From an uncultured Gammaproteobacteria bacterium (GTDB lineage Bacteria > Patescibacteriota > Patescibacteriia > Magasanikbacterales > UBA922): a DNA stretch of 38,513 nt. Under the pieces are notes generated by a model that was given only the letters and a program-made list of their open reading frames with translations, was not told the origin of the DNA and did no database searches. This document shows, one piece after another, positions 6,416 to 33,662 of this stretch (the stretch's first letter is position 1; each line of letters begins with the position of its first letter). The stretch lies in assembly GCA_964457885.1 (NCBI GenBank), contig CAYWFD010000001.1, forward strand, positions 1 through 38,513, given 5' to 3'. A program made the translations under genes and the position numbers.

Positions 6416-7993
6416 ATGGTAAAAAAAATAAAAACCCAATCAGAAAATACATTTTCCCCGACCGTCCTCATCATTCTCGATGGATTCGGGCTGGCTCCTG
6501 AAAAAAATCAGGGTAATGCGATTACCTCGAAAACAGCTCCGAATATTTTCGGATACATGAAAAAATACCCGACTTCAAAATTGAAAACATATGGAGAGCA
6601 GGTAGGACTGTTTCCGGGGCAGCGGGGAAATTCGGAGGCAGGACATTTGAATATCGGAGCCGGACGCATCGTGAAGCAGGATTTGGTGGCAATCTCGGAC
6701 ACGATCCATGATGGCACATTTTTCAAAAATGAAGCGTTCAAACAGGCGATTTTTCATGCAAAAAAATACAAATCAGCTGTGCACCTTATGGGACTCCTGA
6801 CTGATGGAAATTCTGCACATTCGTATCCGGAACATCTATATGCATTGCTTGAGCTCTGTCGTAGAGAAGAAGTGAAAGAGGTGTACGTGCACTTGTTCAC
6901 CGACGGACGAGATTCCGGTCCGCATGCGGCAGCAACCTATCTCCATGAACTTCGGGGGCACATGCTGCATACGGAAAAGATCGCGACTATGATGGGGCGT
7001 CTGTACGGCATGGATCGAAACAAGATTTGGGAGCGAACTAAAGAAGCGTATGAAGCGATCACGATGGGGCGTGGGCACGCAGTCACGAGTGCTGAAGAAG
7101 CGTTGGAGCAGGCATATAATCGCGGGGAAACCGACGAATTTATTACCCCCACCGTCATAGTTGACGCGAAAGGGAGACCGGTAGGTGCAGTCAAGGATCA
7201 TGATGTGATCATATTCTTCAATGCGAGGTCCGACCGTGCCCGGCAGATTACCAAAGCGTTTGTGCAGGAGGATTTCAACAAGAAAAATCCAGGTGCATTC
7301 AGGCGGGTAAAAATTCCCAAAAATATCCGATTTGTTGCACTCACCGATTTCGGTCCTGATCTTGAAAAGATTTTGACTGCGTTTCCGTCACCCGACGTAT
7401 ACAATACGCTTCCGCTTGCACTTTCACACCTGACCCAGCTGTATATCGCGGAATCAGAGAAATATGCGCATGTTACGTATTTTATCAATGGAGGATACGC
7501 CGATCCGGTCAATGGGGAGGATCGCATAAAAATAGAATCGAAGACAGTCGCGCATCATGATGAAAAGCCCCAGATGGCAGCGCGTGAGATTACCAAAAAA
7601 GTTTTGGGCTTCATGAAGAAAGATATATACGAATTCTATTGTATCAATTATGCGAATGCAGACATGATCGGACACACCGAGAATTTCAAGGCGGCATGTA
7701 TCGGTGTTGCGACTCTTGACGAATGTGTCGCAGAGATCGTGCAAGAAACCCTGCTCCATAATGGACAAGTGCTGATTGTCGCAGATCATGGAAACGCAGA
7801 AGAAATGAAAGATCTCAAAACCGGTGAAGTGGATACCGAACACAGTCTCAATCCGGTGCCTTGCATTCTGATCAGAAATACGACCAAAGGAATTAAACTA
7901 AAAGATGGAATTCTTGCCGACGTGGCGCCTACGATTATCAAAATGATTGGAGGACGCCAGCCTCAGGAAATGACCGGTAAACCTCTCGTGTAA
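6416..7993 (+). CDS. gpmI: 2,3-bisphosphoglycerate-independent phosphoglycerate mutase, copy 1
   Basis: LIILDGFGLAP, GNSEAGHLNIGAGR (phosphoserine motif), TDGRD, YANADMIGHT and VADHGNAE. Length is 525 aa. Confidence 0.9.
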   Translation: MVKKIKTQSENTFSPTVLIILDGFGLAPEKNQGNAITSKTAPNIFGYMKKYPTSKLKTYGEQVGLFPGQRGNSEAGHLNIGAGRIVKQDLVAISDTIHDGTFFKNEAFKQAIFHAKKYKSAVHLMGLLTDGNSAHSYPEHLYALLELCRREEVKEVYVHLFTDGRDSGPHAAATYLHELRGHMLHTEKIATMMGRLYGMDRNKIWERTKEAYEAITMGRGHAVTSAEEALEQAYNRGETDEFITPTVIVDAKGRPVGAVKDHDVIIFFNARSDRARQITKAFVQEDFNKKNPGAFRRVKIPKNIRFVALTDFGPDLEKILTAFPSPDVYNTLPLALSHLTQLYIAESEKYAHVTYFINGGYADPVNGEDRIKIESKTVAHHDEKPQMAAREITKKVLGFMKKDIYEFYCINYANADMIGHTENFKAACIGVATLDECVAEIVQETLLHNGQVLIVADHGNAEEMKDLKTGEVDTEHSLNPVPCILIRNTTKGIKLKDGILADVAPTIIKMIGGRQPQEMTGKPLV

Positions 7994-7997
7994 CCAT

Positions 7998-9575
7998 ATG
8001 AATCGCCCAAGACCAGCAGTACTCGCTATCCTAGACGGGTGGGGAGTGGCGCCGCCTAGTGACGGCAATGCAATCTATCACGCCGAAACTCCAAACATGG
8101 ATCGGTTTGTTCATGAATATCCGGCAATGTCCCTATACGCTTCGGGAAACGAAGTGGGATTGTCGTATGGAGAAATGGGAAATTCCGAAGTGGGACATCT
8201 CAATATCGGAGCCGGACGCGTGTATTACCAGACGTTTCCCCGGATTAATAAGACCATCATTGATGGTACATTTTTTCAAAACAAAGCCTTCCTTGCCGCA
8301 CACGAACAGGTAGTGTCGCATAAATCATCGCTACATCTGATTGGGCTCGTGAGTCCAGGAAATGTACATGCAAGTCAGGAGCATCTGTATACATTGTTGG
8401 AGTTTGCAAAGAAAAATAAAATCAAAAAAGTGTACATCCATGTCATTCTCGACGGACGTGATACCCTCTATAATTCAGGTAAAGATTTTGTCTTGAAATT
8501 AGAGGAAAAAATCAAAAAAATCGGTGTCGGCGAAATCGCATCACTTTCGGGTCGGTACTATGCCATGGATCGTGACAATCGTTGGGACCGTATTGAGCGC
8601 GCATATCGCGCCATGGTCGAAGGAGTGTCTGAAGCATATTTCAAAGATCCGCTTGAAGCGATCGAGGCATCATATGAGAAACAGGTCTATGATGAAGAAT
8701 TCATTCCGGTGGTGATTGGTAAAGAAGGGAAACCGACCGCGCGAGTCGAGTCAGGTGACGCAGTGATCTTCTTCAATTTTCGCCCCGACCGTGCACGACA
8801 ATTGACCAAAGCGTTTGTCTTACCGGGCTTTGATAAATTCAAGCGCGAATATTTGAAAGATTTATTATTCGTCACCATGACCGAATACGAAAAAGAAATT
8901 CCGGTAGTCGTGGCTTATCCGCCAGTCGTGGTGCACAATTGTCTTGCTGAAGTTTTGAGTAAGGCAGGGTTGACGCAATTCCATGTGGCGGAGACTGAGA
9001 AATACGCGCACATTACCTTCTTTTTGAATGGTACAGTCGAAGATCCGTTCGAAGGCGAAGGGCGTGCGTTCATTCCTTCGCCCAATGTGTCATCATACGA
9101 CAAAGCCCCAGAAATGTCCGCTCCCGAAATCACCAAGAAGACAATTGAAGCGATCGAATCGGATAAGTATGATGTGATCCTTCTGAATTTTGCGAACGCG
9201 GACATGGTGGGACACACCGGCGATCGCGATGCGACGATCAAAGGATGTGAGGCGATCGACAAGGGACTCGGAAAAATCGCAGAATACGTTAAAGCAAAGG
9301 GTGGAATATTATTGATCACGGCCGATCACGGGAACGCGGAAGAGGTAGTCAATTTGAAGACCGGAGAAAAAGATAAAGAACATAGTAATAATCCGGTACC
9401 CTTTCTTATTATCGGCGAACAATTCCGCGGTCTTGCCGGGCCTACCGGAGACCCGCCTGAGGGTGATCTTAGTCTGGTACATCCGGTCGGAATTTTGGCA
9501 GATGTTGCTCCGACGTTATTAAAAGTCCTGGGGATAGAGCAGCCCCCGGAGATGACCGGAAGATCCTTGATATAA
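7998..9575 (+). CDS. gpmI: 2,3-bisphosphoglycerate-independent phosphoglycerate mutase, copy 2 (diverged tandem paralogue)
   Basis: LAILDGWGVAP, GNSEVGHLNIGAGR, LDGRD, FANADMVGHT and TADHGNAE. It is also 525 aa and starts 4 nt after copy 1 ends. Confidence 0.9.
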   Translation: MNRPRPAVLAILDGWGVAPPSDGNAIYHAETPNMDRFVHEYPAMSLYASGNEVGLSYGEMGNSEVGHLNIGAGRVYYQTFPRINKTIIDGTFFQNKAFLAAHEQVVSHKSSLHLIGLVSPGNVHASQEHLYTLLEFAKKNKIKKVYIHVILDGRDTLYNSGKDFVLKLEEKIKKIGVGEIASLSGRYYAMDRDNRWDRIERAYRAMVEGVSEAYFKDPLEAIEASYEKQVYDEEFIPVVIGKEGKPTARVESGDAVIFFNFRPDRARQLTKAFVLPGFDKFKREYLKDLLFVTMTEYEKEIPVVVAYPPVVVHNCLAEVLSKAGLTQFHVAETEKYAHITFFLNGTVEDPFEGEGRAFIPSPNVSSYDKAPEMSAPEITKKTIEAIESDKYDVILLNFANADMVGHTGDRDATIKGCEAIDKGLGKIAEYVKAKGGILLITADHGNAEEVVNLKTGEKDKEHSNNPVPFLIIGEQFRGLAGPTGDPPEGDLSLVHPVGILADVAPTLLKVLGIEQPPEMTGRSLI

Positions 9576-9589
9576 GTTCCATATTGAAT

Positions 9590-9618
9590 AAAAAAGACCC
9601 CAATCGAGGTCTTTTTTA
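9590..9618. terminator. bidirectional intrinsic terminator between convergent gpmI and the DHH gene
   Basis: AAAAAGACCcc-aatc-gaGGTCTTTTTT is a hairpin flanked by an A-run and a T-run. It abuts the DHH stop codon (9616..9618). Confidence 0.6.
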
Positions 9619-10767
9619 TTGTGGTGTTCCTGCTGTTTCTTTGAGGTGGGTCACAATTTCCTCCTCAACCTCCTTGAGTGTCCTGCCGGAAATCGAGAAT
9701 GTGGCATCATCTTCGTCTCCCATTGCCTCATATTTTTTCATCATTTCAGTGGCATGGACATTCGGAATTACTTTGAGCATCCCATGAATATTACCGGATG
9801 AATCAGACGGATTTTCATACAATACGAGAATGATTTTTGCATCAGGAGAAAATGAGATGAGTTCGTCGATGATGGTCGAGAGATCAGTACTGTGGGCACC
9901 GGTACGGACAAAATCATCACGCGTAAGTGTGGTAGAAACAATACCGTATACGGAATCATACACGAGGTGTGATAACGCAGCACCCCAGAGTTTGAAAGCT
10001 GCAATTGATTTGGTTTGGTACAGCTGTTCAATGATGTAGGCACGGTCAGCACCGAGTTCGACCAGCTTACTTGCGGTTCCCAGCGTGTGCGGACGCACCT
10101 TTTTGTCTTTGAAGCTGTTGGTACCTGCAATAATGCCGGCAAGGAGTGCCGTTGCAATATCTCCGGTCATGAGCTCAGGCTTATAGGTATTCAAGAGTTC
10201 GTACACAATTTCAGACGTCGTACTTGCAGGGAGGTCGACGAGATTGATATGCCCGAATAACTCGTTCGACGCTTTATGATCGATATTGATGATCGGTGTC
10301 TTGAAGAAAAATTCTTCGTGGTGCGTATAGAGGGAGCCGAGCGCTGCAAGTGTAGGAGTATCCAGCACCATGACTGCGTCGTATTTGAATTCAGTTTGGC
10401 TTGTCCGGATAAGGTCTTTGGTATAAAAGCCGTTCTTGGGTGTGATGAAGAGTCGAAGTTTTTCATCTTTGATATCATATCTCAGATTCGACAGTCCATT
10501 TTTTGAAATATCCATGGTAATGAGAAACTGATGCAAATTACCGAGTGATGAGGAAATCGATGGTGAACCCTTGAGGAATGAGAATCGTTGGTCGAGCACA
10601 AACCCATCGCTTGCAATGTGGATTTTCTTACCAAGAGACTCCAAAAAAAGTTTCAATGCCAAAGAAGCCGCAATGGCGTCACCATGCGATTCTTTCTTGA
10701 AGGTGATAAGAATATGCTTCTTGTCTTCAAGGGCTCGGATTACTTGTTGCTGTACGTAGAGTCCCAT
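9616..10767 (-). CDS. DHH-family phosphoesterase-like protein (NrnA-like architecture, degenerate catalytic motifs)
   Basis: Overall NrnA-like layout: HILITFKKESHGDAIAASLAL (motif I region), VMVLDTP (motif II), INIDHKASN (motif III, DHK instead of DHH) and LLAGIIAGTNSF (motif IV region). No GGGH motif is seen in the C-terminal domain. Confidence 0.7.
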   Translation of the reverse strand: MGLYVQQQVIRALEDKKHILITFKKESHGDAIAASLALKLFLESLGKKIHIASDGFVLDQRFSFLKGSPSISSSLGNLHQFLITMDISKNGLSNLRYDIKDEKLRLFITPKNGFYTKDLIRTSQTEFKYDAVMVLDTPTLAALGSLYTHHEEFFFKTPIINIDHKASNELFGHINLVDLPASTTSEIVYELLNTYKPELMTGDIATALLAGIIAGTNSFKDKKVRPHTLGTASKLVELGADRAYIIEQLYQTKSIAAFKLWGAALSHLVYDSVYGIVSTTLTRDDFVRTGAHSTDLSTIIDELISFSPDAKIILVLYENPSDSSGNIHGMLKVIPNVHATEMMKKYEAMGDEDDATFSISGRTLKEVEEEIVTHLKETAGTPQ

Positions 10768-11013: not shown

Positions 11014-14000
11014 ATGTCCCATAAAGAACTCCCCAAAGCCTACGAGCCATCCCAGTATGAAGATGCATTATATCGTCGCGCACAGGATAGTGGCTTTTTT
11101 TCGCCGGACAAGCAGCCGGAATGGGTAAAAAATGATGAAACTCGGGAATCCTTCAGCATGGTCTTGCCTCCGCCGAATGTGACCGGAACCCTTCATATGG
11201 GACATGCGGTCATGCTGGCGATTCAGGACGTCTTGGCACGGTATCACCGGATGAAAGGGGATCGTACCCTTTGGGTGCCAGGAACGGACCACGCAGCAGT
11301 TGCAACCGAATCGAAAGTGGAAAAAATGTTGATCGAGAAAGGAATGAAAAAACCAAAAGCAGAATTTGGCCGTGAAAAGTTTTTAAAAGAAGTGGAAAAA
11401 TTCGCACAAGATTCTCATGACACGATTGTGAACCAGGCAAAAAAGATGGGTGCCTCGCTCGACTGGTCTCGTGAGGCATATACGCTCGATCATGCGCGCA
11501 ATACCGCAGTGAACACACTTTTCACGATGATGTATGATGATGGGCTTATTTACCGTGGTTACCGCGTCATCAATTGGTCCGTCAAAGGTCAGTCCACCTG
11601 CAGTGATGATGAGCTCGTCTATGTGGAGCGACCGGGAAAACTGTACTATTTCAAATATGGACCTGAATGTCCGATCACTATTGCGACCACTCGACCTGAG
11701 ACAAAATTAGGAGATACGGCAATTGCGGTCAATCCAGAAGGGAAATGGAAGAAATATATTGGTGAATATTTTAAGATTGAAAATTTTGGTCAGACCGGAC
11801 ACACGCTTACGCTCAAAGTTATCGCTGATGAAAATGTCGATGATAATTTTGGTACCGGCGCACTTGGAGTGACTCCAGCACATAGCCAGATTGACTTCGA
11901 CATGTATCAGAGACAGAAGGCGAAAGGAGTGAACATTGATTTGATTCAGGTAATTGGTGAAGATGGAAACATGACAGCGAGCGCAGGAAGTGACTATGTA
12001 GGACTCAGTGTTACGGAAGCCCGAAAAAAAGTTGTCGCATGGCTTGAGAAATCAGGTCTTCTTGAGAAATCAGAAGATACGATGCAGAATGTAGGAACCA
12101 GTGACCGGTTTGGGGACGTGGTGGAACCATTACCGAAGACGCAATGGTTTATTGACGTGAACAAAGAATTTACTCTGAAGAATTCGAAATTAAAAGAATT
12201 CAAATCAGGTGACAAAGCAACACTCAAAAAATTGATGCAGTCAGTAGTAAAGACTGGTGAAATTGAGATTATTCCTGATCGATTCAATAAAACCTATTTC
12301 CATTGGATCGACAATCTACGTGATTGGAATATCAGTCGCCAGATTTGGTATGGGCATCAGATTCCCGTATGGTATAGAGGCGAAGAAATTTACTGCGGTA
12401 CTACGGCACCAGAAGGTGAAGGATGGAAACGAGATCCAGACACGCTTGATACGTGGTTTAGTTCAGGTTCATGGACGTTTTCAACATTAGGTTGGCCACG
12501 TACACACGTAGGATTTATACGACATGGAGAAGCTGAAAATAATGTCGCGAAAGTAGTAAATGACGATATTTCGGGTAGTAATTTAACTGAAAAAGGTAGA
12601 AAACAAGTTAATGATCTTGCGAAAGAAGTTAAAAATGAAGGTTTTGAATTAATTGTGTCTTCTCCTGTCCTACGAACCAGACAAACTGCTGAGATTTTAG
12701 CTGAAAAACTAGGGCTACCTGTGGAATTTGATGAACGAATAAGAGAGGTTGGATTTGGTAAACTCGACCACCATACAGAGGCTGAAATTGAGAAAGAACG
12801 TGAAATAAAAGGCTGGATGGTAAAAACACCGTTTGGTATGGAATCATACGTATCGCTCCGCAAGCGAACACATGCTTTTATGCAAGATTTGCTTGCTAAG
12901 TATCCAGGTAAAAAAATATTACTTGTATCTCATGGTGATACGCTTGGGGTGTTGAAACAGTTTGGGACTGATCTCTATACCAATGAAATCGGTTCGACTC
13001 AGGAGAAAGCAAGCTGTGACCTACGTACGTTTGCAAACAATGGACGACAGTCAGATGATCTATCACTTTTCCATCCGACTTCAGTACTCGAAACGGGCTA
13101 CGACATCCTGTTCTTCTGGGTTGCGCGCATGATCCTCATGAGTACGTACGCACTTGGCGAAGTACCGTTTAAGACAGTGTATCTCCATGGACTCGTACGA
13201 GATGAACAGGGTCGAAAAATGAGCAAATCTCTCGGTAATATTATCGATCCTTTGGAAATGATCGGTAAGTATGGAACTGATGCAACGCGATTGTCGCTTC
13301 TAATTGGAGGAACTCCAGGAAACGATATGCGATTGAGCGAAGAAAAAATCGCAGGCTTTAGAAATTTTACGAACAAGCTCTGGAATATTTCACGGTTCAT
13401 GCTCCTCAATATTGAAAATCCCGCTCGAGATCCGAAGGAGCCAAAAGCAGAGACTGCTGCAGACGAATGGATTTTGTACAAATTGAATACCGTTATCGAG
13501 CAGGTAGTTAAGTATCTCGAATCCTATCAATTCTCCCTTGCCGGAGAAACACTTCGAGATTTTACCTGGGGAGAACTCGCAGACTGGTATCTTGAAATCG
13601 CGAAAGTCGAAGGTAATAAAAGTGACATCTTAAATTACATTCTCAATACGATTCTCAAACTTTGGCATCCATACATGCCATTTGTCACGGAACAGATCTG
13701 GCAGGAAGTCTATGGAGGGGAGTCTCTCATGGTAGAAAAGTATCCGGTACCAGGAAAACGAAAGAAAGAGGGTAAAGAAATTGTATTTATCGACACAGTA
13801 CTTATACCAACTATAGTAAAGATTCGTACGATTCGTGCTGAGTATAACATTGATCCAGGAAAAATAATTAACATTGAAATACAATCTGACTCAAGTTATA
13901 AAAAATTGTTTGATGAGTATGGACTAGTAATTGAGCGATTGGGAAGAAGTAAGCGTTATGTTTTGAAAGCAGAATCAGGTTCGTTTGTAATCGGTGGTTC

Positions 14001-14238
14001 GAAGACCTCTTTTGACCTTGGAGGAATAGTTGATGTGGAAAAAGAGCGTGCGCGAATTGAAAAGGAAATTGCTGTGGTCGAACCCTATGTGATTTCCCAG
14101 AAGAAGAAATTGGAAAACAAATCTTTTGTCGACAATGCGCCGAGTGCAGTAGTGGAAGCTGAACGGAAGAAACTTGCAGATGCTGAACAGAAGTTGAACT
14201 CATTGCACGAACAACGTAAGAATTTAATCTCTAATTAA
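11014..14238 (+). CDS. valS: valine--tRNA ligase carrying an internal histidine-phosphatase domain insertion
   Basis: PPPNVTGTLHMGHA (HIGH-type), TTRPETKLGDTAIAVNP and GTGALGVTPAHSQIDFD (editing domain), DTWFSSGSW.FSTLGWP, TGYDILFFWVARM, RKMSKSLGN, and a C-terminal coiled coil (KERARIEKEI...). It is 1074 aa because of the about 184-aa insert. Confidence 0.9.
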   Translation: MSHKELPKAYEPSQYEDALYRRAQDSGFFSPDKQPEWVKNDETRESFSMVLPPPNVTGTLHMGHAVMLAIQDVLARYHRMKGDRTLWVPGTDHAAVATESKVEKMLIEKGMKKPKAEFGREKFLKEVEKFAQDSHDTIVNQAKKMGASLDWSREAYTLDHARNTAVNTLFTMMYDDGLIYRGYRVINWSVKGQSTCSDDELVYVERPGKLYYFKYGPECPITIATTRPETKLGDTAIAVNPEGKWKKYIGEYFKIENFGQTGHTLTLKVIADENVDDNFGTGALGVTPAHSQIDFDMYQRQKAKGVNIDLIQVIGEDGNMTASAGSDYVGLSVTEARKKVVAWLEKSGLLEKSEDTMQNVGTSDRFGDVVEPLPKTQWFIDVNKEFTLKNSKLKEFKSGDKATLKKLMQSVVKTGEIEIIPDRFNKTYFHWIDNLRDWNISRQIWYGHQIPVWYRGEEIYCGTTAPEGEGWKRDPDTLDTWFSSGSWTFSTLGWPRTHVGFIRHGEAENNVAKVVNDDISGSNLTEKGRKQVNDLAKEVKNEGFELIVSSPVLRTRQTAEILAEKLGLPVEFDERIREVGFGKLDHHTEAEIEKEREIKGWMVKTPFGMESYVSLRKRTHAFMQDLLAKYPGKKILLVSHGDTLGVLKQFGTDLYTNEIGSTQEKASCDLRTFANNGRQSDDLSLFHPTSVLETGYDILFFWVARMILMSTYALGEVPFKTVYLHGLVRDEQGRKMSKSLGNIIDPLEMIGKYGTDATRLSLLIGGTPGNDMRLSEEKIAGFRNFTNKLWNISRFMLLNIENPARDPKEPKAETAADEWILYKLNTVIEQVVKYLESYQFSLAGETLRDFTWGELADWYLEIAKVEGNKSDILNYILNTILKLWHPYMPFVTEQIWQEVYGGESLMVEKYPVPGKRKKEGKEIVFIDTVLIPTIVKIRTIRAEYNIDPGKIINIEIQSDSSYKKLFDEYGLVIERLGRSKRYVLKAESGSFVIGGSKTSFDLGGIVDVEKERARIEKEIAVVEPYVISQKKKLENKSFVDNAPSAVVEAERKKLADAEQKLNSLHEQRKNLISN
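12499..13050 (+). other. histidine phosphatase superfamily (PGAM/CobC-type, branch 1) domain embedded in valS
   Basis: VGFIRHGEAENN, LTEKGRKQ, IVSSPVLRTRQTAEIL, EVGFGKLD and LLVSHGDTLG. It is in frame with ValRS on both sides and has no stop codons. Confidence 0.75.
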
Positions 14239-14677: not shown

Positions 14678-15859
14678 ATGAAAATTTCAACCGACAAGAA
14701 AAAAATTGATGAATTACTTTCGCGCGGAGTCGAAAGTGTGATTGATAAGAATCATTTGAAAAAGCGTCTGGAATCAGGGGAAAAACTCCGGATCAAATTA
14801 GGTATTGATCCGACCAGCCCGAATTTGCATCTGGGCCGCTCGATCCCGCTTCTCAAAATGCGTGATTTCCAGGAGCTCGGTCACCAGCTGGTTTTTATTG
14901 TCGGTGATTTTACTGGGGTCATCGGTGACACATCAGACAAAGACAGCGAGCGACCTATGCTCGAGAGAGAGCACGTGAAGAAGAATATGAAGAGCTATGT
15001 GGAGCAGGCAGGAAAAATCATCGATATCAAGAGAGCGGAAGTGCAGTATAATAGCACATGGCTGTCAAAAATCGACTATAATCAACTCGGTGAACAGGCA
15101 GATGCGTTTTCCCTTGCGGAATTTATCGCACGCGACAATATCCGACGTCGTCTGGAAGCAGGGACCCGTGTATCACTTCGTGAAGTATTGTATCCGCTGA
15201 TGCAGGGATATGATTCGGTTGCAGTCAAAGCCGATGTCGAGCTCGGTGGTACGGATCAAAGGTTCAATCTGCTTGCAGGTAGAACCTTGCAGGCTCGATT
15301 CGGGCAGGAACCGCAGGATATCATCATGAATCCACTAGTGGAAGGCACTGACGGCAGAAAAATGAGCTCAAGCTGGGGGAATACAGTCAATTTGAACGAC
15401 ACTCCGAATGATATGTTCGGGAAAATCATGAGTATTCCGGACAACCTCATTATTCCATACTTTACCTACATGACCCGGGTACCAATGGGCACGGTTGAGG
15501 AGTATGAAAAAGACATGAGAGTGGGCGGTAATCCGCGTGATTACAAAGTAAAACTTGCGGGTGAATTGGTACGTTTTTATCATGGTGAAAAAGAAGCGTC
15601 GGCTGCTGAGGAATATTTTGTGGCAACGTTCGCAAAAAAAGAAATGCCGACAGATATCACGGAATTGCGGCCGAGTGCGTACGACATTATTACGGTATTG
15701 AAAGAAGCGCAATTCGCGACAAGTACGAGCGACGCGAGGCGTACGATTGAAGGTGGCGGAGTCAAAATCAACGACAAGAAAGTCACCTCATACGAGGAGA
15801 CATGCACGGCAGGAGATATTATCCAGAAAGGAAAGAGGTTTTTTGTAAAAGTGGTATGA
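14678..15859 (+). CDS. tyrS: tyrosine--tRNA ligase
   Basis: DPTSPNLHLGRSIPL (HIGH-type), GDFTGVIGDTSDK, GGTDQRFN, KMSSSWGN (KMSKS-type) and a C-terminal S4-like SDARRTIEGGGVKIND. Confidence 0.9.
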   Translation: MKISTDKKKIDELLSRGVESVIDKNHLKKRLESGEKLRIKLGIDPTSPNLHLGRSIPLLKMRDFQELGHQLVFIVGDFTGVIGDTSDKDSERPMLEREHVKKNMKSYVEQAGKIIDIKRAEVQYNSTWLSKIDYNQLGEQADAFSLAEFIARDNIRRRLEAGTRVSLREVLYPLMQGYDSVAVKADVELGGTDQRFNLLAGRTLQARFGQEPQDIIMNPLVEGTDGRKMSSSWGNTVNLNDTPNDMFGKIMSIPDNLIIPYFTYMTRVPMGTVEEYEKDMRVGGNPRDYKVKLAGELVRFYHGEKEASAAEEYFVATFAKKEMPTDITELRPSAYDIITVLKEAQFATSTSDARRTIEGGGVKINDKKVTSYEETCTAGDIIQKGKRFFVKVV

Positions 15860-17577
15860 TCAGATACGTACACGAACATATTGCGGGGTTGCTTGAAACA
15901 ATCGGAATACCGGAACATCATATTACACTCACGATTCCGCCTAAAAAAGAAATGGGAGACGCAGCATTCCCTGTTTTTCAGTATGCTAAAGAACAGGAAG
16001 TACATCCAGTCGAAGCAGCAAAACAATTGGCAGAAAAATTTAATCAAGAGACTGAAGATACTCTCGTCGAGCGTGCTGAAGCATTCGGGCCATATGTCAA
16101 TTTTTTCTTGAATGATCGCGAGCTTGCACAAGTAGTACTGAATCTTGCGACTCGAAATTCTGCTGCGCCTGCAGATTCAAAAGGTTCGATCATGATCGAA
16201 TTTATTTGCGCAAATACACACAAAGCATTCCATATCGGCCATCTTCGAAATGCGATTCTCGGAGAATCATTGGTGCGATTGCACGAACACGCAGGCTATC
16301 GAGTAATACGTACTACGTATGGAGGAGATGTGGGTATGCATATTGCAAAATGCCTGTGGGGAATTGAAAAACTTCATGAAAAATATGAAGAGGTAAAGCA
16401 GAATACATTCATCGAAGAGCGCATGAAATTTATCGGTGAGGCATATGCATATGGCGCAACACAGTTTGAGAAAGATGAACACGCACAAGAGGAGATCAAA
16501 CAGTACAATGAAATGATTTATAAAAAGGATCCAGCCATCAAAGAGGTCTACGAAACCACTCGAAGTTGGAGTCTTGAAAATCTTGAGAGAATTTATCAAT
16601 TGCTCGGCATTCAATTCGATCGATATTACTTTGAATCAGAAGTTTTTGAACGTGCAATTGGAATTGTTACTGAAGGTCTTGCACAAGGAATCTTTGAAAA
16701 AAGCGATGGCGCAGTGATATTTAAGGGAAGCGAACACGGCCTGCATGATCGAGTATTCCTCAATAGCAAAGGGCTTCCGACATATGAAGCAAAAGATCTG
16801 GCTCTCGCAGAGAAAGAATTCGGGGAGTATCATCCGGATGCGATTTATCATGTGATCGGGCCCGAACAGTCTGAGTATCTCAAAGTTCTGTTTAAAGCCC
16901 TTGAATATACCTTGGCTGAAAGCGCGGGAAAAGAGTTCCATATTCCCTATGGTTGGGTCGATCTCAAGGGAATGAAAATGAGTTCTCGGACTGGGGATGT
17001 GGTGACGGCTGAAGATCTGATCAAAGAAGTGAAGATACACATCAGGGAGCACATGGAATCAAGCGAAGTCAAAGCAAAACTTTCGTCTGAAGAGAAAGAG
17101 AGTGTGATTGAAAACGTATCAATGGGGGCGGTGAAATACGCATTCCTCAAGACCGGACGAGTGAACAATATCACCTTCGATATGCAGGAGTCGGTCTCAA
17201 CCTCGGGAGACAGTGGACCGTATTTGCTCTACATCGTTGCGCGCTTCAAAAGTATTCTCGCGAAAAGTACTTCTGACGCGAAGAGCGGGAACATATCCAT
17301 TCCCGAAGTTCTCGAGCCAGCAGAACGTGCATTGATCATTAAGCTTGGAGAGTTTGAAAGTGCAGTCGACGAGGCGATTGAAGCGAAAGATCCGTCAAAA
17401 ATCGCGCAATATCAATTTGAACTTTCGCAAAGCGCGAATCAATTCTATCACGAGTGCCCAGTCCTTGGCGCAGAAGAAGTAATCCGGGGATTCCGTCTTG
17501 CTCTAATTAAAAAAGTGGTCCATACTATGGAAGTTGGTTTTGATCTTCTCGGAATTACTACGGTTGAACACATGTAA
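15856..17577 (+). CDS. argS: arginine--tRNA ligase
   Basis: ANTHKAFHIGHLRNAILGESL, MSSRTGDVVTAEDL and the DALR-type anticodon-binding GPYLLYIVARFKSIL. The start is set at ATG 15856, giving an ATGA overlap with the tyrS stop (15857..15859). Confidence 0.85.
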   Translation: MIRYVHEHIAGLLETIGIPEHHITLTIPPKKEMGDAAFPVFQYAKEQEVHPVEAAKQLAEKFNQETEDTLVERAEAFGPYVNFFLNDRELAQVVLNLATRNSAAPADSKGSIMIEFICANTHKAFHIGHLRNAILGESLVRLHEHAGYRVIRTTYGGDVGMHIAKCLWGIEKLHEKYEEVKQNTFIEERMKFIGEAYAYGATQFEKDEHAQEEIKQYNEMIYKKDPAIKEVYETTRSWSLENLERIYQLLGIQFDRYYFESEVFERAIGIVTEGLAQGIFEKSDGAVIFKGSEHGLHDRVFLNSKGLPTYEAKDLALAEKEFGEYHPDAIYHVIGPEQSEYLKVLFKALEYTLAESAGKEFHIPYGWVDLKGMKMSSRTGDVVTAEDLIKEVKIHIREHMESSEVKAKLSSEEKESVIENVSMGAVKYAFLKTGRVNNITFDMQESVSTSGDSGPYLLYIVARFKSILAKSTSDAKSGNISIPEVLEPAERALIIKLGEFESAVDEAIEAKDPSKIAQYQFELSQSANQFYHECPVLGAEEVIRGFRLALIKKVVHTMEVGFDLLGITTVEHM

Positions 17578-18105: not shown

Positions 18106-19293
18106 ATGAGTTATTTTGAGAATTTTTTTACGCAACCACCTGAAAAAATTATTGAATGGCGCGATACCGAAACAGAAGCAGTTGGTTGGTTAGTATTTAA
18201 TTCATTGCGCGGGGGTGCGGCAGGTGGGGGAACAAGAATGAAACCAGGGTGCACTCTGGAAGAGGTAATCAATCTGGCAAAAGTCATGGAAATTAAATTC
18301 GCAATTTCAGGTCCATTGATTGGTGGTGCAAAATCAGGAATAAATTACCTCCCAAAAGATGAACAAGAAAAACATGAGGTTTTAACTAGATGGTTTACTT
18401 TTATTGGGTCATATCTTAAAAAGATGTATGGCACTGGCGGTGACTATAATGTAGATCAGACAAGGGATGTCGTACCAATTCTAGAGAAGTTCGGTATTCG
18501 ACATCCACAAGAAGGCATTGTTCGTGGACATTTAAAGGGCATGAAAAAAACAATTCAGGATAAGATAATAGGACAATTGCATACGGGCGTAAAACTTTCA
18601 GTTGATAATTTTTTTGCAGATAAACAGATAACAATTGCAGATATCGCGACAGGATTTGGGGTAGTTGAGGCTCTACAGGAATATTATGAAGTCTATAGCG
18701 AAACAATTGAAGACAAAAAGATTATTGTAGAAGGATTTGGAAATGTAGGCGGTGCGTCTGCATATTTTGCAGAAAAAGCAGGAGCAGTAGTCGTAGGGAT
18801 TATAGAGAAGGATTGGAAGATGTATAACGACCGTGGTATCGTCGTCGAAAAATTGTATAAACATATTCGAAAAAGGGGGGTGAAAAAGCAGTCGCTTCTC
18901 AAACCTTCACAAAAAAATATAATCGCTGATGTCTATATACCGGCTGCAGCTTCGGGGACTATCAATGGTGAGCGACTGGGTGTTTTGAAAGATATGGGGG
19001 TAAAAATCATTGTATGCGGAGCTAATAATCCGTTTGATTCGATTGAAACGCTAAAGAAAGCGGATGCGATGTTCGTGGTAATTCCTGATTTTGTGGCAAA
19101 TGCAGGTATGGCGCGTACATTTGCATATCTTATGCAGCCAGACGCGATAGTTACGAGCAATGCGATTTTGGAGGATATTGCACAATGTATACGAGGGGCC
19201 GTAAGAGAGATATACTCTCAAGCCCCATTGGGGAACTATCTCTACGCAACTGCTGAAAAGGTAGTAATGGATAGATTAAATACACGTTCATAA
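18106..19293 (+). CDS. Glu/Leu/Phe/Val dehydrogenase family protein (divergent)
   Basis: RGGAAGGGTRMKPG, IGGAKSGINY (catalytic Lys motif), GTGGDYNVD, the Rossmann motif VEGFGNVGGASAYF, and CGANNP. Confidence 0.75.
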   Translation: MSYFENFFTQPPEKIIEWRDTETEAVGWLVFNSLRGGAAGGGTRMKPGCTLEEVINLAKVMEIKFAISGPLIGGAKSGINYLPKDEQEKHEVLTRWFTFIGSYLKKMYGTGGDYNVDQTRDVVPILEKFGIRHPQEGIVRGHLKGMKKTIQDKIIGQLHTGVKLSVDNFFADKQITIADIATGFGVVEALQEYYEVYSETIEDKKIIVEGFGNVGGASAYFAEKAGAVVVGIIEKDWKMYNDRGIVVEKLYKHIRKRGVKKQSLLKPSQKNIIADVYIPAAASGTINGERLGVLKDMGVKIIVCGANNPFDSIETLKKADAMFVVIPDFVANAGMARTFAYLMQPDAIVTSNAILEDIAQCIRGAVREIYSQAPLGNYLYATAEKVVMDRLNTRS

Positions 19294-19296
19294 TAT

Positions 19297-20319
19297 ATGA
19301 AAAAAGAGTATCTGAATGTTTGGAATATCGTAGCAGAAGATTTTCCATTTAGTAAAAATGTAGCTGAACAGATAAAATTTGTATTGAAATACGCAGTCCT
19401 TGCACCCTCAACGCACAATATCCAGCCGTGGCTTTTTCGGGTTGAAAGTAATACGTGTAGTTTTTTATTTGATCCACAGGCGGTATTGCCTCATGGAGAC
19501 AGTGAACGGAGGTACGCAACGATAAGTATTGGTGCTGCGCTTGAAAATTTCATTATTGCGGCGACAGCTTTTGGTATGAAACCCTCGGTACAGTACATGG
19601 TAAATGAAGACGTCTACGCACGAGTGTCTGTCGAAGCAGGAAAAATTCTTGATGATAAATATATCGGAATACTTAAATCAATTACAGAACGGGTCAACGT
19701 ACGAGGAGTATTTCAGTCAGGGAAAATATCTGATGAGATTGTATCTTTATTACGATCGGAAGCAGAGGCAAAAGAATGCACTGCACATATATATACAGAT
19801 CAAGAAAAAATATCACATATCGCAGAACTCACCGCTTTAGGGCTTCAGCGAGCGCATAAACAAGATACATTTCGTAAGGAAATGGCGACGCATATTGTTT
19901 CAAATATTTCAGAGAGCCCAATCGGAATTCCTGGATACACAATGAATTTGCCGTTGATATTTTCTTTAATTATCCCAAAATTGATTTACTACAAGGATCT
20001 TTCCCCGATATTATCGAAACTAAATTACAAAAGTATCGCCTCAGCACCAATAGTGTGTGTAATAACTGCAAAGCAATGGAATAGACGCTCATGGCTTGAG
20101 GTGGGTCAAACCGCAGAGAGATTGATACTCCATGCTCAAAGCAGGGGTATGCATTCATCGGTATATGTGGCAGCGACTGAATTTGATGAGACTGCGCTTG
20201 AATTGCAGAAGATAATACATACCGAGGAACGTCCGGCATTTATATTTTGTATGGGGTATATGAAAAAAAGATACAAACATGCTCAAAGGGTCCCAAGCGA
20301 GCGGAAAATCATTTCATGA
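19297..20319 (+). CDS. Acg-type (double nitroreductase fold) FMN-binding oxidoreductase family protein
   Basis: LKYAVLAPSTHNIQPWLFRV, D..R......GAALENF, ERVNVRGVF, and about 340 aa with the same layout I remember for M. tuberculosis Acg/Rv2032-like proteins. Confidence 0.7.
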   Translation: MKKEYLNVWNIVAEDFPFSKNVAEQIKFVLKYAVLAPSTHNIQPWLFRVESNTCSFLFDPQAVLPHGDSERRYATISIGAALENFIIAATAFGMKPSVQYMVNEDVYARVSVEAGKILDDKYIGILKSITERVNVRGVFQSGKISDEIVSLLRSEAEAKECTAHIYTDQEKISHIAELTALGLQRAHKQDTFRKEMATHIVSNISESPIGIPGYTMNLPLIFSLIIPKLIYYKDLSPILSKLNYKSIASAPIVCVITAKQWNRRSWLEVGQTAERLILHAQSRGMHSSVYVAATEFDETALELQKIIHTEERPAFIFCMGYMKKRYKHAQRVPSERKIIS

Positions 20320-20332
20320 TAATAAACATCAT

Positions 20333-21448
20333 ATGGAAAAACTAAGACAAAAGTTAACCCAATATAATACTACCGATAATTCGATATATAAACCGGATAT
20401 TTTTGATATCACAAAAAAAGATGACCAACAGAAATTAGAACGTCTATTTGAAGAGCAAAAGATTGCATATCTTATAAACGATCTAGAAAATCAAGAAAAA
20501 GAACTGCAGGTGATCAAAAATCCAGAAACTATGTTGCAGGCGACCGCATTGCATGAAACATTCAGAGATTCGGCAGATGCGAATATTGAGGGTGGAAGAT
20601 GGGTTTATTATCCCTGGAGAAAGACCCTGGTACATTGTCTTGGACCAGAACAATATCAGACAGTAAGACTTGCAAGAAATAAAGACCTGATTACTGAAAA
20701 AGAACAGATAGCAATAAAGAACGCCAGAATATCTATATTTGGGTTAAATGTAGGATATTCAGGAGCCATTGCATGTGCGCTGGGAGGGGTGGGATCACAT
20801 TTCGATTTGGTTGATTTGGATGTACTTTCTCTTACCAACCTTAATCGCTTTACTGCGGGCATATGTGATATTGGAATAAATAAAGCGGTTATAGCCGCGC
20901 GACATATGTATGAATTGGATCCGTATTTGGACATCACAGTTCATGAAAAAGGATTGAATATGGAGGGTGCTGAAGATTTTATTCGCGAAAAAAAACCGGA
21001 CCTAGTAATCGAAGAAATGGATGCGTTAAAATTGAAAATATTGGTCCGTAAAGTTGCAAAAGAACAAAAGATTCCAGTGGTAATGGTGACTGGAAATGGA
21101 AGTGACATTATTTTGGATGTTGAGCGATACGATTCTGAAACGGTGGAATTACTGAATGGCCTGCTGGATGAAAAAGTGAGGGAAAAAATAGAGAATAAAG
21201 AAGGACGATTTTCATTTGAAGAACACATCGAGTTAGCTCGGGATTTTATGGGCAGAGAATGGCTAACCAAACGGTTGTGGGATTCGTTTACAAAAGTTGG
21301 GAAAGAATTGGCAGGTATACCACAACTTGGTGAGACCACACTCCTTCGAGGCGCAACACTCGGTCGTGTGGTACGAAATATATTAACGGGAGAGCCTGTC
21401 CGATCGGGAAGATACGTTATTACATTAGGAGATTTCACTAATCAGTAG
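20333..21448 (+). CDS. ThiF/MoeB/E1-like adenylyltransferase family protein with an N-terminal extension of about 125 aa
   Basis: ARISIFGLNVGYSGAIACALGG (variant nucleotide loop), DLDVLSLTNLNRF (Arg finger region), GINKA and LVIEEMDALKLK. The start is set at ATG 20333, 13 nt after the upstream stop. Confidence 0.75.
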   Translation: MEKLRQKLTQYNTTDNSIYKPDIFDITKKDDQQKLERLFEEQKIAYLINDLENQEKELQVIKNPETMLQATALHETFRDSADANIEGGRWVYYPWRKTLVHCLGPEQYQTVRLARNKDLITEKEQIAIKNARISIFGLNVGYSGAIACALGGVGSHFDLVDLDVLSLTNLNRFTAGICDIGINKAVIAARHMYELDPYLDITVHEKGLNMEGAEDFIREKKPDLVIEEMDALKLKILVRKVAKEQKIPVVMVTGNGSDIILDVERYDSETVELLNGLLDEKVREKIENKEGRFSFEEHIELARDFMGREWLTKRLWDSFTKVGKELAGIPQLGETTLLRGATLGRVVRNILTGEPVRSGRYVITLGDFTNQ

Positions 21449-21451
21449 TCT

Positions 21452-22879
21452 ATGTTACCAGCAGGTTTCAAACAAGCATTAAAAGCATTTCAGCGGGCAG
21501 CGGAGACAGTTCCTGCATATCAAAAATTTCTTAAGTCAGAAGGGATTAATCCTGCAATGATTAAAACCCCTGAGGATTTTGAGAAAATTCCCTATGTAGA
21601 CAAAAAAAATTATCTGAGAAAATACGAATATCAGGAACTGTTTCCATTTGGGCACATACCTGAGATGGTCTCAGCAAGCTCAGGGTCATCAGGTAAGCCG
21701 TTTTATTGGCCACGCAGTGAGGCGCTCCATACAGAAGGTGCCGAAATTCATGCACGTATTTTTACAGATATATTTGGTCTGGAAAAAAAGAAAACACTAG
21801 TTATCGTTTCATTCTCAATGGGTATGTGGATAGCAGGAACATATACCTTGCTTTCATTGCTTGAAATGCAGAGAAAGAATGGTTTAAATATTTCAATTGC
21901 AACTCCTGGAATTGAGGTAGAAGATACTATATCAATACTGCGTGGATTTGCCAAAAATTTTGATGCAATCGTATTTATCGGATACCCTCCATTTATCATG
22001 GACCTTATTAAAAAAGCTCAGGAAGAAAAGATAAATTTGAATACGTGGGATATTTCTTTTCTGTTTGCAGGAGAACAGTTTTCAGAAGTATGGCGCGAGT
22101 ATGTATATGATATCGCAGGAGTTACGTCAGATCTTTCTCGATCGGTAAGTATCTACGGGACTGCAGATGCCGGCATTGTGGGGCATGAAACACCTGCCAC
22201 AGTTGCGTTTCGTAAAAGTTTTTTACGCAAGGATTTTTTGCATACTGACCAGCTTGACCAGCTTGGAGAAGCACAGACATTGGTGCAGTATTACCCAAAG
22301 TATAAGTATCTCGAAACTCATAAAAGTGAGCTGTTGATAACGTCGGCATACACAGGTATCCCCCTGATAAGGTATAATATCCATGATCAGTGTGTATTGG
22401 TGCCCGAAAACGAGTTTGAAAAATTGTCTGAAAAAGCGAGTGTATACACGAATTTTCCAGAATTGCGTCATGCGAAATATCAACTACCTGTGGTTGCGTT
22501 ATATGGACGAAAAGATATTGCGGTCATGTTTTACGCACTTATCATCTATCCGCAAAATATAAAAGCAGGGTTAGAGGAAAAAAGTATTGCACCGTATATA
22601 ACAGGAAAATTTATCGCTGAAGTGGTGTTAGGTAAAAAAGGTAAGCAGAATTTGCGGATTCATGTGGAATTGGCTGAAAGTAAAATGAGGAACGGAAAAA
22701 TAGAGAAAAAAATACAATCCTTGGTAATAAAAGCGCTTTGTCAAAAAAACGCTGAATATCGAAAATTGGTCGCTTCAATAGGAAAACAGGCATATCCAAA
22801 GATGGTGCTACATGAATTCGGCTCAGAAATTTTTAAGATTAAGAAATCAAAACATAATTGGGTGAAGAAAGCCCTCTAG
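21452..22879 (+). CDS. phenylacetate-CoA ligase / coenzyme F390 synthetase-like adenylate-forming enzyme
   Basis: VPAYQKFLKSEGINPAMIKTPEDFEKIPYVDKKNYL is a PaaK/CapK-type N-terminus. SASSGSSGKPFYWP corresponds to the (S/T)SGTTGKP adenylation loop, and YGTADAG is also present. Confidence 0.65.
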   Translation: MLPAGFKQALKAFQRAAETVPAYQKFLKSEGINPAMIKTPEDFEKIPYVDKKNYLRKYEYQELFPFGHIPEMVSASSGSSGKPFYWPRSEALHTEGAEIHARIFTDIFGLEKKKTLVIVSFSMGMWIAGTYTLLSLLEMQRKNGLNISIATPGIEVEDTISILRGFAKNFDAIVFIGYPPFIMDLIKKAQEEKINLNTWDISFLFAGEQFSEVWREYVYDIAGVTSDLSRSVSIYGTADAGIVGHETPATVAFRKSFLRKDFLHTDQLDQLGEAQTLVQYYPKYKYLETHKSELLITSAYTGIPLIRYNIHDQCVLVPENEFEKLSEKASVYTNFPELRHAKYQLPVVALYGRKDIAVMFYALIIYPQNIKAGLEEKSIAPYITGKFIAEVVLGKKGKQNLRIHVELAESKMRNGKIEKKIQSLVIKALCQKNAEYRKLVASIGKQAYPKMVLHEFGSEIFKIKKSKHNWVKKAL

Positions 22880-32896: not shown

Positions 32897-32933
32897 GATG
32901 GAACAGAAGCGTCTCGTGACGAACTGTTCCATC
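32897..32933. other. 10-bp perfect inverted repeat at a composition boundary
   Basis: GATGGAACAG (32897..32906) pairs with CTGTTCCATC (32924..32933) across a 17-nt loop containing a nested CGTC/GACG stem. It lies between the convergent MBL gene and the sigma fragment and has no U-tract. Confidence 0.3.
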
Positions 32934-32984
32934 GAGGGAGCATTGCTGCTCCATTACCATCCGGCACATAGCACTACGCACCTA

Positions 32985-33337
32985 CTACGTCCCGCCCCGC
33001 ATATATCCGAAACGGATTTTGCGGAGGGCAGCCTCTTCGCGTTGCCGTACGCGCTCGCGTGTGAGACCGAGCGTTTCGCCGATCTCCTCAAGCGTTTCCG
33101 CGGGACGCCCGCCGAGTCCGTATCTGCGAGCGAGAATTTCACGGTCTTTGGCCTTGAGCTCGACCGCATACAGCAAGTGAGCGAGCTCCTGGCGGATCGC
33201 AAACACCTCGGCGTCGGTGTCTGCATGTTTCCCGGCACCGAGTGTCTCATCGCCAATCACATCTTGGTACGTTCCCTTATCAGTAGTGCCCCGGACGAGC
33301 GGTTGCTGCATGCTCACCGATTTGCTTCGGTAGATGG
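32985..33337 (-). pseudogene. sigma-70 family fragment (regions 3.2-4 only)
   Basis: SVSMQQPLVRGTTDKGTYQDVIGDE resembles the region 3.2 pattern (sLd.Pig....lgD.i.D). LKAKDREILARRYGLGGRPAETLEEIGETLGLTRERVRQREEAALRKIR is the region 4.2 HTH. Regions 1-2 are absent. GC is about 68% in a hand-counted line. Confidence 0.6.
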
Positions 33338-33585
33338 ACAGTGCCTGCAGCAGCAGCGAGAACTGGTTTTCCCAGTGAGCTGCATCCATCGCCAACGATG
33401 TCGATCGCATAGCGATCATCCGTGTACTGTCCACCGTAGTCGATGTGGCTCTGCGTGTTGTAGGTGCGGGTAAGCTTCCAGGTTTCCCCTCCAGGAAAGG
33501 GAAACTTGAGAGTAGGTTGAGCATGTGTGCTGCTACAGAGCAGTATCACACATGTCATTGCTAGAAAACTTAGAACGCGGTTCAC
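33338..33585 (-). pseudogene. M23 peptidase 5' fragment (signal peptide plus first half of the catalytic domain)
   Basis: The GTG start at 33585 is preceded by AAGGAG. The signal peptide is MNRVLSFLAMTCVILLCSSTHA. SHIDYGGQYTDDRYAIDIVGDGCSSLGKPVLAAAAGTV matches the H...D and G.PV.A.A.G.V part of M23 domains. The frame breaks at about 33337, where the sigma homology begins in another frame. Confidence 0.55.
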
Positions 33586-33637
33586 TTTCTTTTCTCCTTT
33601 ATCCCGGGTTGAATGAGATTTCTATTAAATAAGAAAC

Positions 33638-33662
33638 CTCTATAGGGACAGTGGCTATAGAG
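33638..33662 (-). terminator. probable terminator of the 33684..34820 gene
   Basis: CTCTATAG (33638..33645) pairs with CTATAGAG (33655..33662) in an 8-bp stem, followed on the minus strand by the T-rich GTTTCTTATTT. Confidence 0.4.

Follow-up and report, generated by a model that had tools for sequence, protein, structure and literature searches.

A histidine phosphatase domain nested in a valyl-tRNA synthetase of Patescibacteria, and the association of its clade with class Ia aminoacyl-tRNA synthetases

Across the Candidate Phyla Radiation (CPR), one clade of branch-1 histidine phosphatases is associated with the isoleucyl-, valyl- and arginyl-tRNA synthetases (IleRS, ValRS and ArgRS). The association takes five arrangements: the phosphatase lies in a linker of ValRS, in connective peptide 3 (CP3) of ValRS, in CP3 of IleRS in one to three copies, at the C-terminus of ArgRS, or in a separate gene that follows argS. 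The starting point of this analysis was the valS gene of a 38,513-nt stretch of DNA (contig CAYWFD010000001.1, assembly GCA_964457885.1), which we call the window and to whose full length all positions refer; here a complete phosphatase domain interrupts the synthetase in frame. Since recurrent independent fusions and conserved gene adjacency are a standard comparative-genomic signal, we read them as a functional link and infer that the pairing has been selected. We give about an even chance to the idea that the module is an active phosphomonoesterase of small substrates, selectively coupled to class Ia synthetases that would serve as its carrier.

The valS product of the window scores above the ValRS equivalog cutoffs of the NCBIfam models NF004349 (914 bits, cutoff 704) and TIGR00422 (835 bits, cutoff 612), and each of these models matches in two stretches that are interrupted at about residue 497. 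In the Pfam search, tRNA-synt_1 was matched in several split stretches, together with Anticodon_1 (PF08264), Val_tRNA-synt_C (PF10458) and His_Phos_1 (PF00300), the latter with an E value of 2.7e-36 and 125.5 bits in the full product and 130.3 bits when the insert was searched alone (cutoff 21.7). The synthetase is split at residue 495/496. The catalytic pentad of the phosphatase is complete: Arg503 (12520-12522), His504 (12523-12525), Arg554 (12673-12675), Glu578 (12745-12747) and His640 (12931-12933). Without the insert the host part has 884 aa, and insert-free relatives have 885-893 aa. The ValRS encoded in the window looks functional by its sequence; to judge from named relatives, its organism is Magasanikbacteria-like and belongs to the Patescibacteria (CPR). 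A first-pass annotation of this DNA had described a complete branch-1 histidine phosphatase with its core catalytic residues inside one uninterrupted 1074-aa open reading frame (ORF) carrying LHMGHA, the CP1 editing motifs and KMSKS, with flanking blocks that end at 12498 and begin at 13069 and with about 890 aa left once the insert is removed; the ORF list, the motif mapping and the Pfam search, which gave the expected splitting of tRNA-synt_1 by His_Phos_1, bear out this description.

Comparison of the junctions showed what the insert has displaced. The insert-free sequence GWP-KETDDLKK-FHPT becomes GWP-xT-[~180 aa]-DLxx-FHPT in the ValRS of the window type, hereafter type A, and the insert takes the place of the middle of an ancestral 8-residue linker (KETDDLKK in insert-free proteins, RT...DDLSL in the window). 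This linker sits after the WFSSG strand, at the boundary of CP3 and the second Rossmann half. In an AlphaFold2 (AF2) model of the full-length product, built on a 41-sequence alignment (mean predicted local distance difference test score, pLDDT, 75.8; predicted template modelling score, pTM, 0.64), the insert is modelled as an alpha/beta domain of its own; pLDDT is about 90 for residues 500-590 and 72-89 up to about residue 680, and the linkers around it (residues 477-495 and 681-687) are of low confidence. The domain is predicted to fold independently, which answers at the level of a model the question of separate folding raised in the first-pass annotation. When the full-length model was searched with Foldseek, the top match was the Thermus thermophilus ValRS 1GAX (E 2.7e-51), and none of the matches listed, which are ordinary class Ia synthetases, has such an insert.

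The same architecture recurs in other genomes. The insert occupies this 8-residue linker in at least 24 independent ValRS clusters. Besides the window protein itself, a search with the full sequence recovered about 35 ValRS of full length (1050-1095 aa) that carry PF00300 and are 52-77% identical to the window protein; the contigs that encode insert-bearing ValRS reach 914 kb and come from NCBI, JGI, ENA and Logan. In type A proteins the insert follows DTWFSS...GWP and the spacing of the flanking motifs is constant (200-203 aa). In a further class, type B, it precedes DTWFSS: it comes after the RDWxISRQxWG linker and before the WFSSG strand, in the region that published IleRS structures name CP3, where it frequently separates the two CxxC halves of a zinc knuckle. 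Because at least 24 ValRS clusters share the type A site, and because syntenic orthologs with and without the insert exist, the insert is not an assembly artefact. Misassembly was rejected, the identical junction being found in dozens of independent contigs from these four data sources; an assembly chimera or a pseudogene, which has nothing in its favour except the unusual architecture, is further opposed by the intact frame and by the conserved catalytic motifs on both sides, and is barely credible. Several records among the loci used here (L001-L003, L005-L007, L011 and others), with the usual gene content of CPR and CPR-type synthetases, are titled 'uncultured Gammaproteobacteria' or 'uncultured Bdellovibrionales' and are apparently misnamed.

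The phosphatase is also found outside ValRS. When the 190-aa insert was compared by phmmer with 1.84 billion cluster representatives, only 6 matches fell below 1e-30 and long proteins dominated the top of the list. Among the best 150 representatives (50% clusters), 65 have the phosphatase embedded in a synthetase (57 IleRS, 7 ValRS and 1 ArgRS), 63 are free-standing proteins of less than 300 aa, and the other 22, of at least 300 aa and without a synthetase, are mostly free tandem two-domain proteins. The IleRS assignments are sound: P0243, P0247, P0261, P0283, P0301 and P0309 score 830-897 bits on TIGR00392 (cutoff 621), and each is split at about profile position 498-502 by one or two His_Phos domains. 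The main insertion site in IleRS is CP3; a few copies lie after WFxSG, some proteins have a second copy after KMSKS, and nine IleRS-type proteins carry two or three copies in tandem. Examples of the tandem form are P0243, P0247, P0248, L050:2252-6910 and L080:914-6115 (1419-1553 aa, L080 at least 1734 aa), and P0241, a ValRS-like fragment, has 4 phosphatase stretches. For one Paceibacterota-type IleRS, the best 120 relatives (59-100% identity) all had PF00300. In ArgRS the domain is a C-terminal fusion, seen in P0341 (689 aa, a metagenome cluster representative; His_Phos_1 at aa 509-671, E 4.5e-32), and the order of this fusion matches the argS-then-phosphatase gene order of CPR genomes. The phosphatase thus occupies at least four distinct insertion sites in synthetases. 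The single case described in the first-pass annotation has to be widened: the insert is indeed conserved at the ValRS linker, but the domain occurs as well in CP3 of ValRS, in IleRS and in ArgRS.

A scan of the GTDB species-representative genomes with the alignment and patterns of the type A inserts, from which 80 returned loci were classified, gave about 40 IleRS-embedded copies, 4 in ValRS, and free-standing genes for the rest. The IleRS-embedded loci belong to Saccharibacteria, Paceibacterota, Nomurabacteria, Taylorbacteria, Buchananbacteria and Peribacteria. Phosphatase-bearing IleRS are named by NCBI merely 'class I tRNA ligase family protein', which looks like an annotation problem; these essential enzymes bear that name because of the phosphatase domain within the synthetase. 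Other hydrolase domains can accompany the phosphatase: L030:1322-5425 (CAYMJM010000006.1) encodes a 1367-aa ValRS-like protein with three inserts, a HAD domain (PF00702, aa 248-423), a Ser_hydrolase domain (PF06821, aa 765-868) and His_Phos_1 (aa 897-1063). Strikingly, this one synthetase combines two phosphatase folds that are unrelated to each other.

Gene order ties the unfused phosphatases to the synthetases as well. In every CPR locus in which the phosphatase ORF was resolved (L003, L005, L006, L009, L010, L016, L017 and L035), the free-standing gene, of those closest to the insert, lies directly downstream of argS, with an insert-free ileS further downstream in L010, L017 and L035. Where ileS itself bears the insert, argS was found at most two ORFs upstream in about 16 loci. 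About 27 non-CPR loci of the same scan, which include Planococcus, Paenibacillus and enterobacterial GpmB, have no synthetase neighbour. The likeness between type A inserts and the argS-linked free genes (RHGEAE, SP, HGD) is biased, because RHGEAE was itself a scan pattern, and no specificity signature common to all synthetase-linked phosphatases was found, only generic family residues being shared across the classes.

The module is evolutionarily labile: valS genes that are syntenic and close relatives have gained it, lost it or let it diverge. The type A inserts group together coherently, with 39-83% identity to that of the window, and the other insert classes are about 30-35% identical among each other. 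In a neighbour-joining tree calculated on host columns only, which is no more than indicative, insert-free, type A and type B ValRS are interleaved, and the insert-free P0134 and P0137 nest beside the type A P0126. Identities of host and insert are discordant (P0124, 79% for the host and 45% for the insert; P0130, 66% and 69%), and the insert evolves faster than the host. The loci of P0134 and P0137 have the order of the window: GAPDH-PGK-SIMPL-enolase-iPGM-iPGM-...-DHH(-)-valS-126 aa-tyrS-argS-VKOR, where iPGM stands for cofactor-independent phosphoglycerate mutase. Since this order is the same in the loci with the insert (window, L001 and L002) and without it (L081 and L082), these orthologous loci differ cleanly in having or lacking the insert, a presence/absence polymorphism. 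The part valS-tyrS-argS is common to the window, L001, L002 and L011, and is also seen in the insert-free L081 and L082. Within 10 kb on either side of the insert-free P0134 and P0137 there is no free-standing phosphatase; the extra 211-aa gene of these relatives was considered as a compensating phosphatase and rejected, as it is unrelated to His_Phos. The DNA that flanks the insert is about 80% identical between orthologs with and without it, with exact matches of 12-20 nt, and exchange of the insert by homologous recombination is therefore conceivable.

Several lines of evidence bear on the chemistry of the domain. Its catalytic pentad is invariant in 23 of 23 type A inserts, and in the IleRS inserts the conservation is about 98-100%. 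The closest solved sequences are PhoE of Geobacillus stearothermophilus (1EBB/1H2E, E 3e-25), followed by PspA (4IJ5), CobC (6NRU/6E4B) and GpgP (4PZ9), down to 3e-16; true cofactor-dependent phosphoglycerate mutases (dPGMs) reached E values of about 1e-10 at best in this search of the PDB. These relatives share with the insert the size class of about 180-210 aa and the same Arg-His...Arg...Glu...His set, but they are free-standing, whereas the insert is nested in a synthetase. In NCBIfam the insert falls below the cutoffs of the dPGM models (dPGM_arch, 104.9 bits against 225; pgm_1, TIGR01258, 23.9 against 81.7; PRK14115, 20.1 against 305) as well as of GpmB (77.6 against 261), CobC (TIGR03162, 83.8 against 162.9), PspA (NF045917, 63 against 350) and SixA (TIGR00249, 35.9 against 74.5). 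The inserted domains are acidic, with a median isoelectric point (pI) of 5.6 and none of 25 type A inserts above pI 8, and in this property they are indistinguishable from free-living homologs. The insert, the full valS product and one free-standing CPR homolog gave no match to the PADLOC defence models. From the conserved residues we infer that the domain is catalytically active, and from its relatives it is probably a generic PhoE-like phosphatase and not a mutase. Of the phosphatase/mutase activity proposed in the first-pass annotation, the phosphatase part is retained, with the catalytic residues conserved, and the mutase part is dropped, as the dPGM cutoffs were failed.

In the reading that we favour, His504 would act as the nucleophile, Arg503, Arg554 and His640 would hold the phosphoryl group, and Glu578 would donate the proton, while aminoacylation and editing by ValRS would carry on normally. 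The substrate would most likely be a small phosphorylated metabolite or nucleotide; a small molecule is favoured because the attachment geometries are diverse, tandem arrays exist and the domain is acidic. For the same reasons (varied attachment points, tandem arrays, acidity) a precise placement at the tRNA 3' end is disfavoured, and the synthetase may rather be a selected carrier that provides co-expression and co-localisation with aminoacylation. A number of observations weigh against this reading. Since no equivalog model was passed, substrate specificity cannot be transferred by homology. The module is dispensable in some lineages, given that the closest relatives, P0134 and P0137, have neither the insert nor a nearby copy. 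Some type B ValRS inserts (P0166, P0169, P0200 and P0211) have degenerate catalytic residues, with the arginine of RHG replaced in some (LVHS, VAHG) and, in some, Glu changed to Gly or the second His to Ser or Gln, which suggests from their sequences that catalysis has been lost and the domain kept. The retrieval of free-standing genes was biased, because the scan patterns were derived from type A inserts, and the adjacency of argS and ileS alone could explain part of the neighbourhood signal. Finally, a tRNA-directed role is not to be dismissed, because the CCA end of the tRNA enters a pocket that is lined by the CP2-3 linker, a neighbour of the insertion region; the IleRS inhibitor reveromycin A binds in the same pocket (PMC7955072).

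Such a role is the core of one rival explanation, in which the domain would heal tRNA ends in connection with aminoacylation, taking a 2'/3'-phosphate or a pyrophosphate, left for example by nuclease damage or by toxSAS-type enzymes, off the CCA end, or clearing a phosphorylated nucleotide by-product at the entrance of the active site, and so restoring chargeable tRNA in cis. Most insertions are placed on either side of the WFxSG strand, within CP3 or beside it, and CP3 follows the linker of the CCA pocket; the phosphatase was recruited repeatedly and specifically to synthetases, and its catalytic residues are conserved, all of which would fit. The acidity of the domains, however, is that of ordinary small-molecule phosphatases, in class Ia architectures that are known, the ArgRS C-terminus and the post-KMSKS site of IleRS both lie a long way from the acceptor end, and arrays of two to four copies are hard to reconcile with this role. 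Moreover, healing would be needed for all tRNAs, whereas only the Arg, Ile and Val enzymes are involved, the defence models found no match, and we know of no branch-1 histidine phosphatase that acts on RNA 3' ends. The tRNA-end substrate suggested in the first-pass annotation is weakened by the acidic domain and the diverse attachment, and is kept as an alternative that we judge decidedly unlikely. The same grade goes to a built-in repair or counter-measure module of CPR class Ia synthetases, which would take a blocking phosphate or pyrophosphate off the tRNA 3' end, undo the phosphorylation that a toxin kinase puts on the synthetase, or break down a phosphorylated mimic of the aminoacyl-adenylate; if it were true, organisms that live attached to hostile hosts would have self-healing charging of their Ile, Val and Arg tRNAs, and synthetases would have, beside the editing domains, a further class of accessory domain with a new function.

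The phosphatase may instead be a neutral passenger, a housekeeping enzyme of the argS-ileS cluster that was captured repeatedly by the permissive CP3 and linker and that persists by an unrelated metabolic function of its own or by mere tolerance, with no gain from being carried. The topology of the CP3 subdomain already differs between species among the solved IleRS (PMC7191050), and these loops accept other domains (HAD and Ser_hydrolase in L030, and the acetyltransferase of the NCBIfam IleRS-with-GNAT model). The clean loss in P0134 and P0137 without local compensation, the degenerate catalysis of some type B inserts and the evolution of the insert, faster than that of the host, would also be expected of a passenger. 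Less easily explained in this way are at least five independent architectures that involve the same phosphatase clade and only the class Ia enzymes for Arg, Ile and Val, the retention in all 120 Paceibacterota-type IleRS relatives, the strict conservation of the pentad across deep divergence, and a gene adjacency that is kept even when the phosphatase is unfused; we regard a neutral origin and persistence as unlikely, if far from negligible. A non-catalytic role, either as an allosteric sensor that binds a phosphometabolite and ties translation to the energy or glycolytic state, or as a PhoE/dPGM-like dimerisation module that brings the synthetases for Arg, Ile and Val together in a complex, is very improbable. 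The phosphoryl-binding residues are among those conserved, branch-1 enzymes are commonly dimers or tetramers, and the same module is found on several different synthetases; against this, the proton-donor Glu and both His are conserved to about 100%, beyond the needs of binding, and the diverse attachment points speak against a defined allosteric path. Finally, the first-pass annotation had suggested a moonlighting dPGM-like activity, which would supplement glycolysis. The archaeal dPGM model is the top NCBIfam match by score, and a glycolytic operon lies upstream of valS; all dPGM equivalogs are nonetheless below cutoff, the nearest solved relatives (PhoE, PspA and CobC) are phosphatases, the domain is short (about 180 aa), and two iPGM genes already cover the step in an operon that flanks insert-free valS as well. 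We give this activity next to no chance.

To place the finding among known systems, the window ValRS shares with T. thermophilus ValRS (1GAX) and the bacterial equivalogs the HIGH and KMSKS motifs, the CP1 motifs, the anticodon domain and the coiled coil. The solved and curated ValRS have no domain in the GWP...FHP linker, where the window protein has 190 aa, and the CP3 of the latter is cut to 22 aa. The CPR IleRS with His_Phos in CP3 (for example P0283, P0261 and L019), known as database entries only, carry a phosphatase of the same clade, about 38-43% identical to the window insert, and agree with the window valS in the catalytic residues, the region of the class Ia core and the lineage (Patescibacteria); they differ in the host, in a site that lies before WFxSG inside CP3, and in having often two or three tandem copies. 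The CP1 editing domain is likewise an enzyme domain carried by class Ia synthetases, but it is universal and acts on aminoacyl-tRNA. The IleRS with GNAT (NF040702, ileS_w_GNAT) has likewise an accessory enzyme domain, of another fold and chemistry. Branch-1 phosphatases fused to enzymes of nucleic acids or nucleotides are known in the mycobacterial RNase H/acid phosphatase (NF005567, Rv2228c type) and in the MutT1 Nudix-His_Phos protein (NF052459), which the insert matches weakly (89 bits against 326 and 20 against 475); those are terminal fusions with other partners, and their functions do not carry over to the insert. In a full-text literature search, no paper turned up that describes an aminoacyl-tRNA synthetase with a histidine phosphatase or PGAM domain. 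The statement of the first-pass annotation that no synthetase with such a module had been described therefore holds for papers, but automated pipelines have already labelled some of these proteins, one relative being listed by JGI as 'valyl-tRNA synthetase/broad specificity phosphatase PhoE', though with no interpretation. The pairing is widespread in the CPR yet apparently undescribed. That synthetases bear accessory domains is familiar; what is new is a phosphatase nested in the class Ia core and recurrent across three synthetases.

The features of the window are listed in Table 1. The two iPGM genes that the first-pass annotation had placed upstream of valS are there, at the end of a GAPDH-PGK-SIMPL-enolase operon, but its use of them as a hint to the role of the insert does not stand: because the same conserved glycolytic operon adjoins insert-free valS, the iPGM genes are uninformative on the insert, and their tandem duplication is kept in L081 and L082 independently of it. 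The DHH gene between this operon and valS belongs to an NrnA-like family that we take to include oligoribonucleases and pAp phosphatases. In L081 and L082 the 211-aa gene (7914-8549 in both), which has no Pfam match, lies between the second iPGM gene and the DHH gene, and the window has only a 40-nt gap (9576-9615) at this position. The longest argS ORF of the window starts within tyrS and shares its last 58 nt (15802-15859); since the overlap is only 4 nt in L081 and L082, where argS has 572 aa, the true start of the window argS is probably at about 15856. No tRNA genes were found in the window.

Table 1. Features of the valS region of the window and of the valS product
Feature	Position in window	Strand	Description	Source
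iPGM genes, two in tandem	6416-7993 and 7998-9575		525 aa each; end of GAPDH-PGK-SIMPL-enolase operon	
DHH-family gene, NrnA-like type	9616-10767	-	divergent from valS; arrangement conserved in relatives	
valS	11014..14238	+	single uninterrupted 1074-aa ORF; ValRS with nested phosphatase domain	
ValRS N-terminal part	11014..12498	+	first Rossmann half, CP1, CP2-3 linker, CP3 loop, WFSS strand	
HIGH motif LHMGHA	11191-11208	+	residues 60-65	motif mapping
CP1 editing motif TTRPET	11686-11703	+	residues 225-230	motif mapping
CP1 editing motif GTGALGVTPAHS	11851-11886	+	residues 280-291	motif mapping
CP2-3 linker RDWNISRQIWYG	12319-12354	+		CP nomenclature per PMC7191050, PMC7955072
CP3, short loop	12373-12438	+	22 aa, without zinc knuckle	junction comparison
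DTLDTWFSS	12439-12465	+	block runs on through GWP at 12490-12498 (residue 495)	
Insert	12499..13068	+	residues 496-685, 190 aa; branch-1 histidine phosphatase domain plus short linkers	
His_Phos_1 (PF00300) match	12514..12954	+	residues 501-647	Pfam
ValRS C-terminal part	13069..14235	+	second Rossmann half, anticodon-binding domain, coiled coil	
Second-Rossmann-half block opening FHPT	13069-13131	+	starts at residue 686	
KMSKS	13216-13230	+	residues 735-739	motif mapping
Anticodon-binding domain			residues 817-950 of valS product	Pfam
C-terminal coiled-coil tRNA-binding arm			residues 1007-1071 of valS product	Pfam
tyrS	14678-15859	+		Pfam
argS	ORF 15802-17577	+		Pfam

At the DNA level, the insert has a GC content of 0.391 against 0.433 in the host part of valS (15th percentile of the window) and a GC content at third codon positions (GC3) of 0.253 against 0.417 (3.7th percentile). 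The AT-richness noted in the first-pass annotation is real but weaker than it had stated. A trough of GC3 at about 12184-12900 (0.24-0.31 against about 0.42 elsewhere in valS) does not match the borders of the insert, as it begins about 300 nt upstream and ends within it; taken with the identity to relatives, which varies like a mosaic over valS, the trough may mark a recombination tract. A foreign composition was rejected on these grounds, the overall GC being unremarkable, and composition was not used as evidence. No direct repeats flank the insert. The inverted pair ACGTAGG (12506..12512) and CCTACGT (13020..13026) is present as the first-pass annotation had reported but is at the level of chance, the region having 11 inverted pairs of 7 nt against 9.9 +/- 4.1 in shuffles. 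With neither repeats nor an inverted pair above chance, and with no homing endonuclease (His_Phos_1 being the only domain), a mobile element was rejected. So was an intein, since the junctions GWP|RTHV and DLSL|FHPT lack splicing residues and no other domain is present. Elsewhere in the window, the block 18106-22879 has low GC3 (0.32-0.34), and 32898-38498 is a compositional patchwork, in which 33684-34820 (minus strand) and a NUDIX gene at 35663-36130 have GC of 0.32-0.33 and their neighbours 32898-33473, 35121-35582 and 36669-38498 have 0.53-0.58.

Aminoacyl-tRNA synthetases belong to the best-studied enzymes, and their accessory domains known so far (for editing, for tRNA binding and, in eukaryotes, for signalling) each revealed new biology. 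We know of no role of phosphatase chemistry in aminoacylation. Here a phosphatase with its catalytic residues intact lies in the core of ValRS; most IleRS of a major CPR clade contain the module too, and with ArgRS it occurs as a fusion or as a neighbouring gene. The natural orthologs with and without the insert at a syntenic locus are ready-made experimental controls. The signal points to an unrecognised step or safeguard of translation, or of its coupling to metabolism, in organisms that account for much of the diversity of bacteria.

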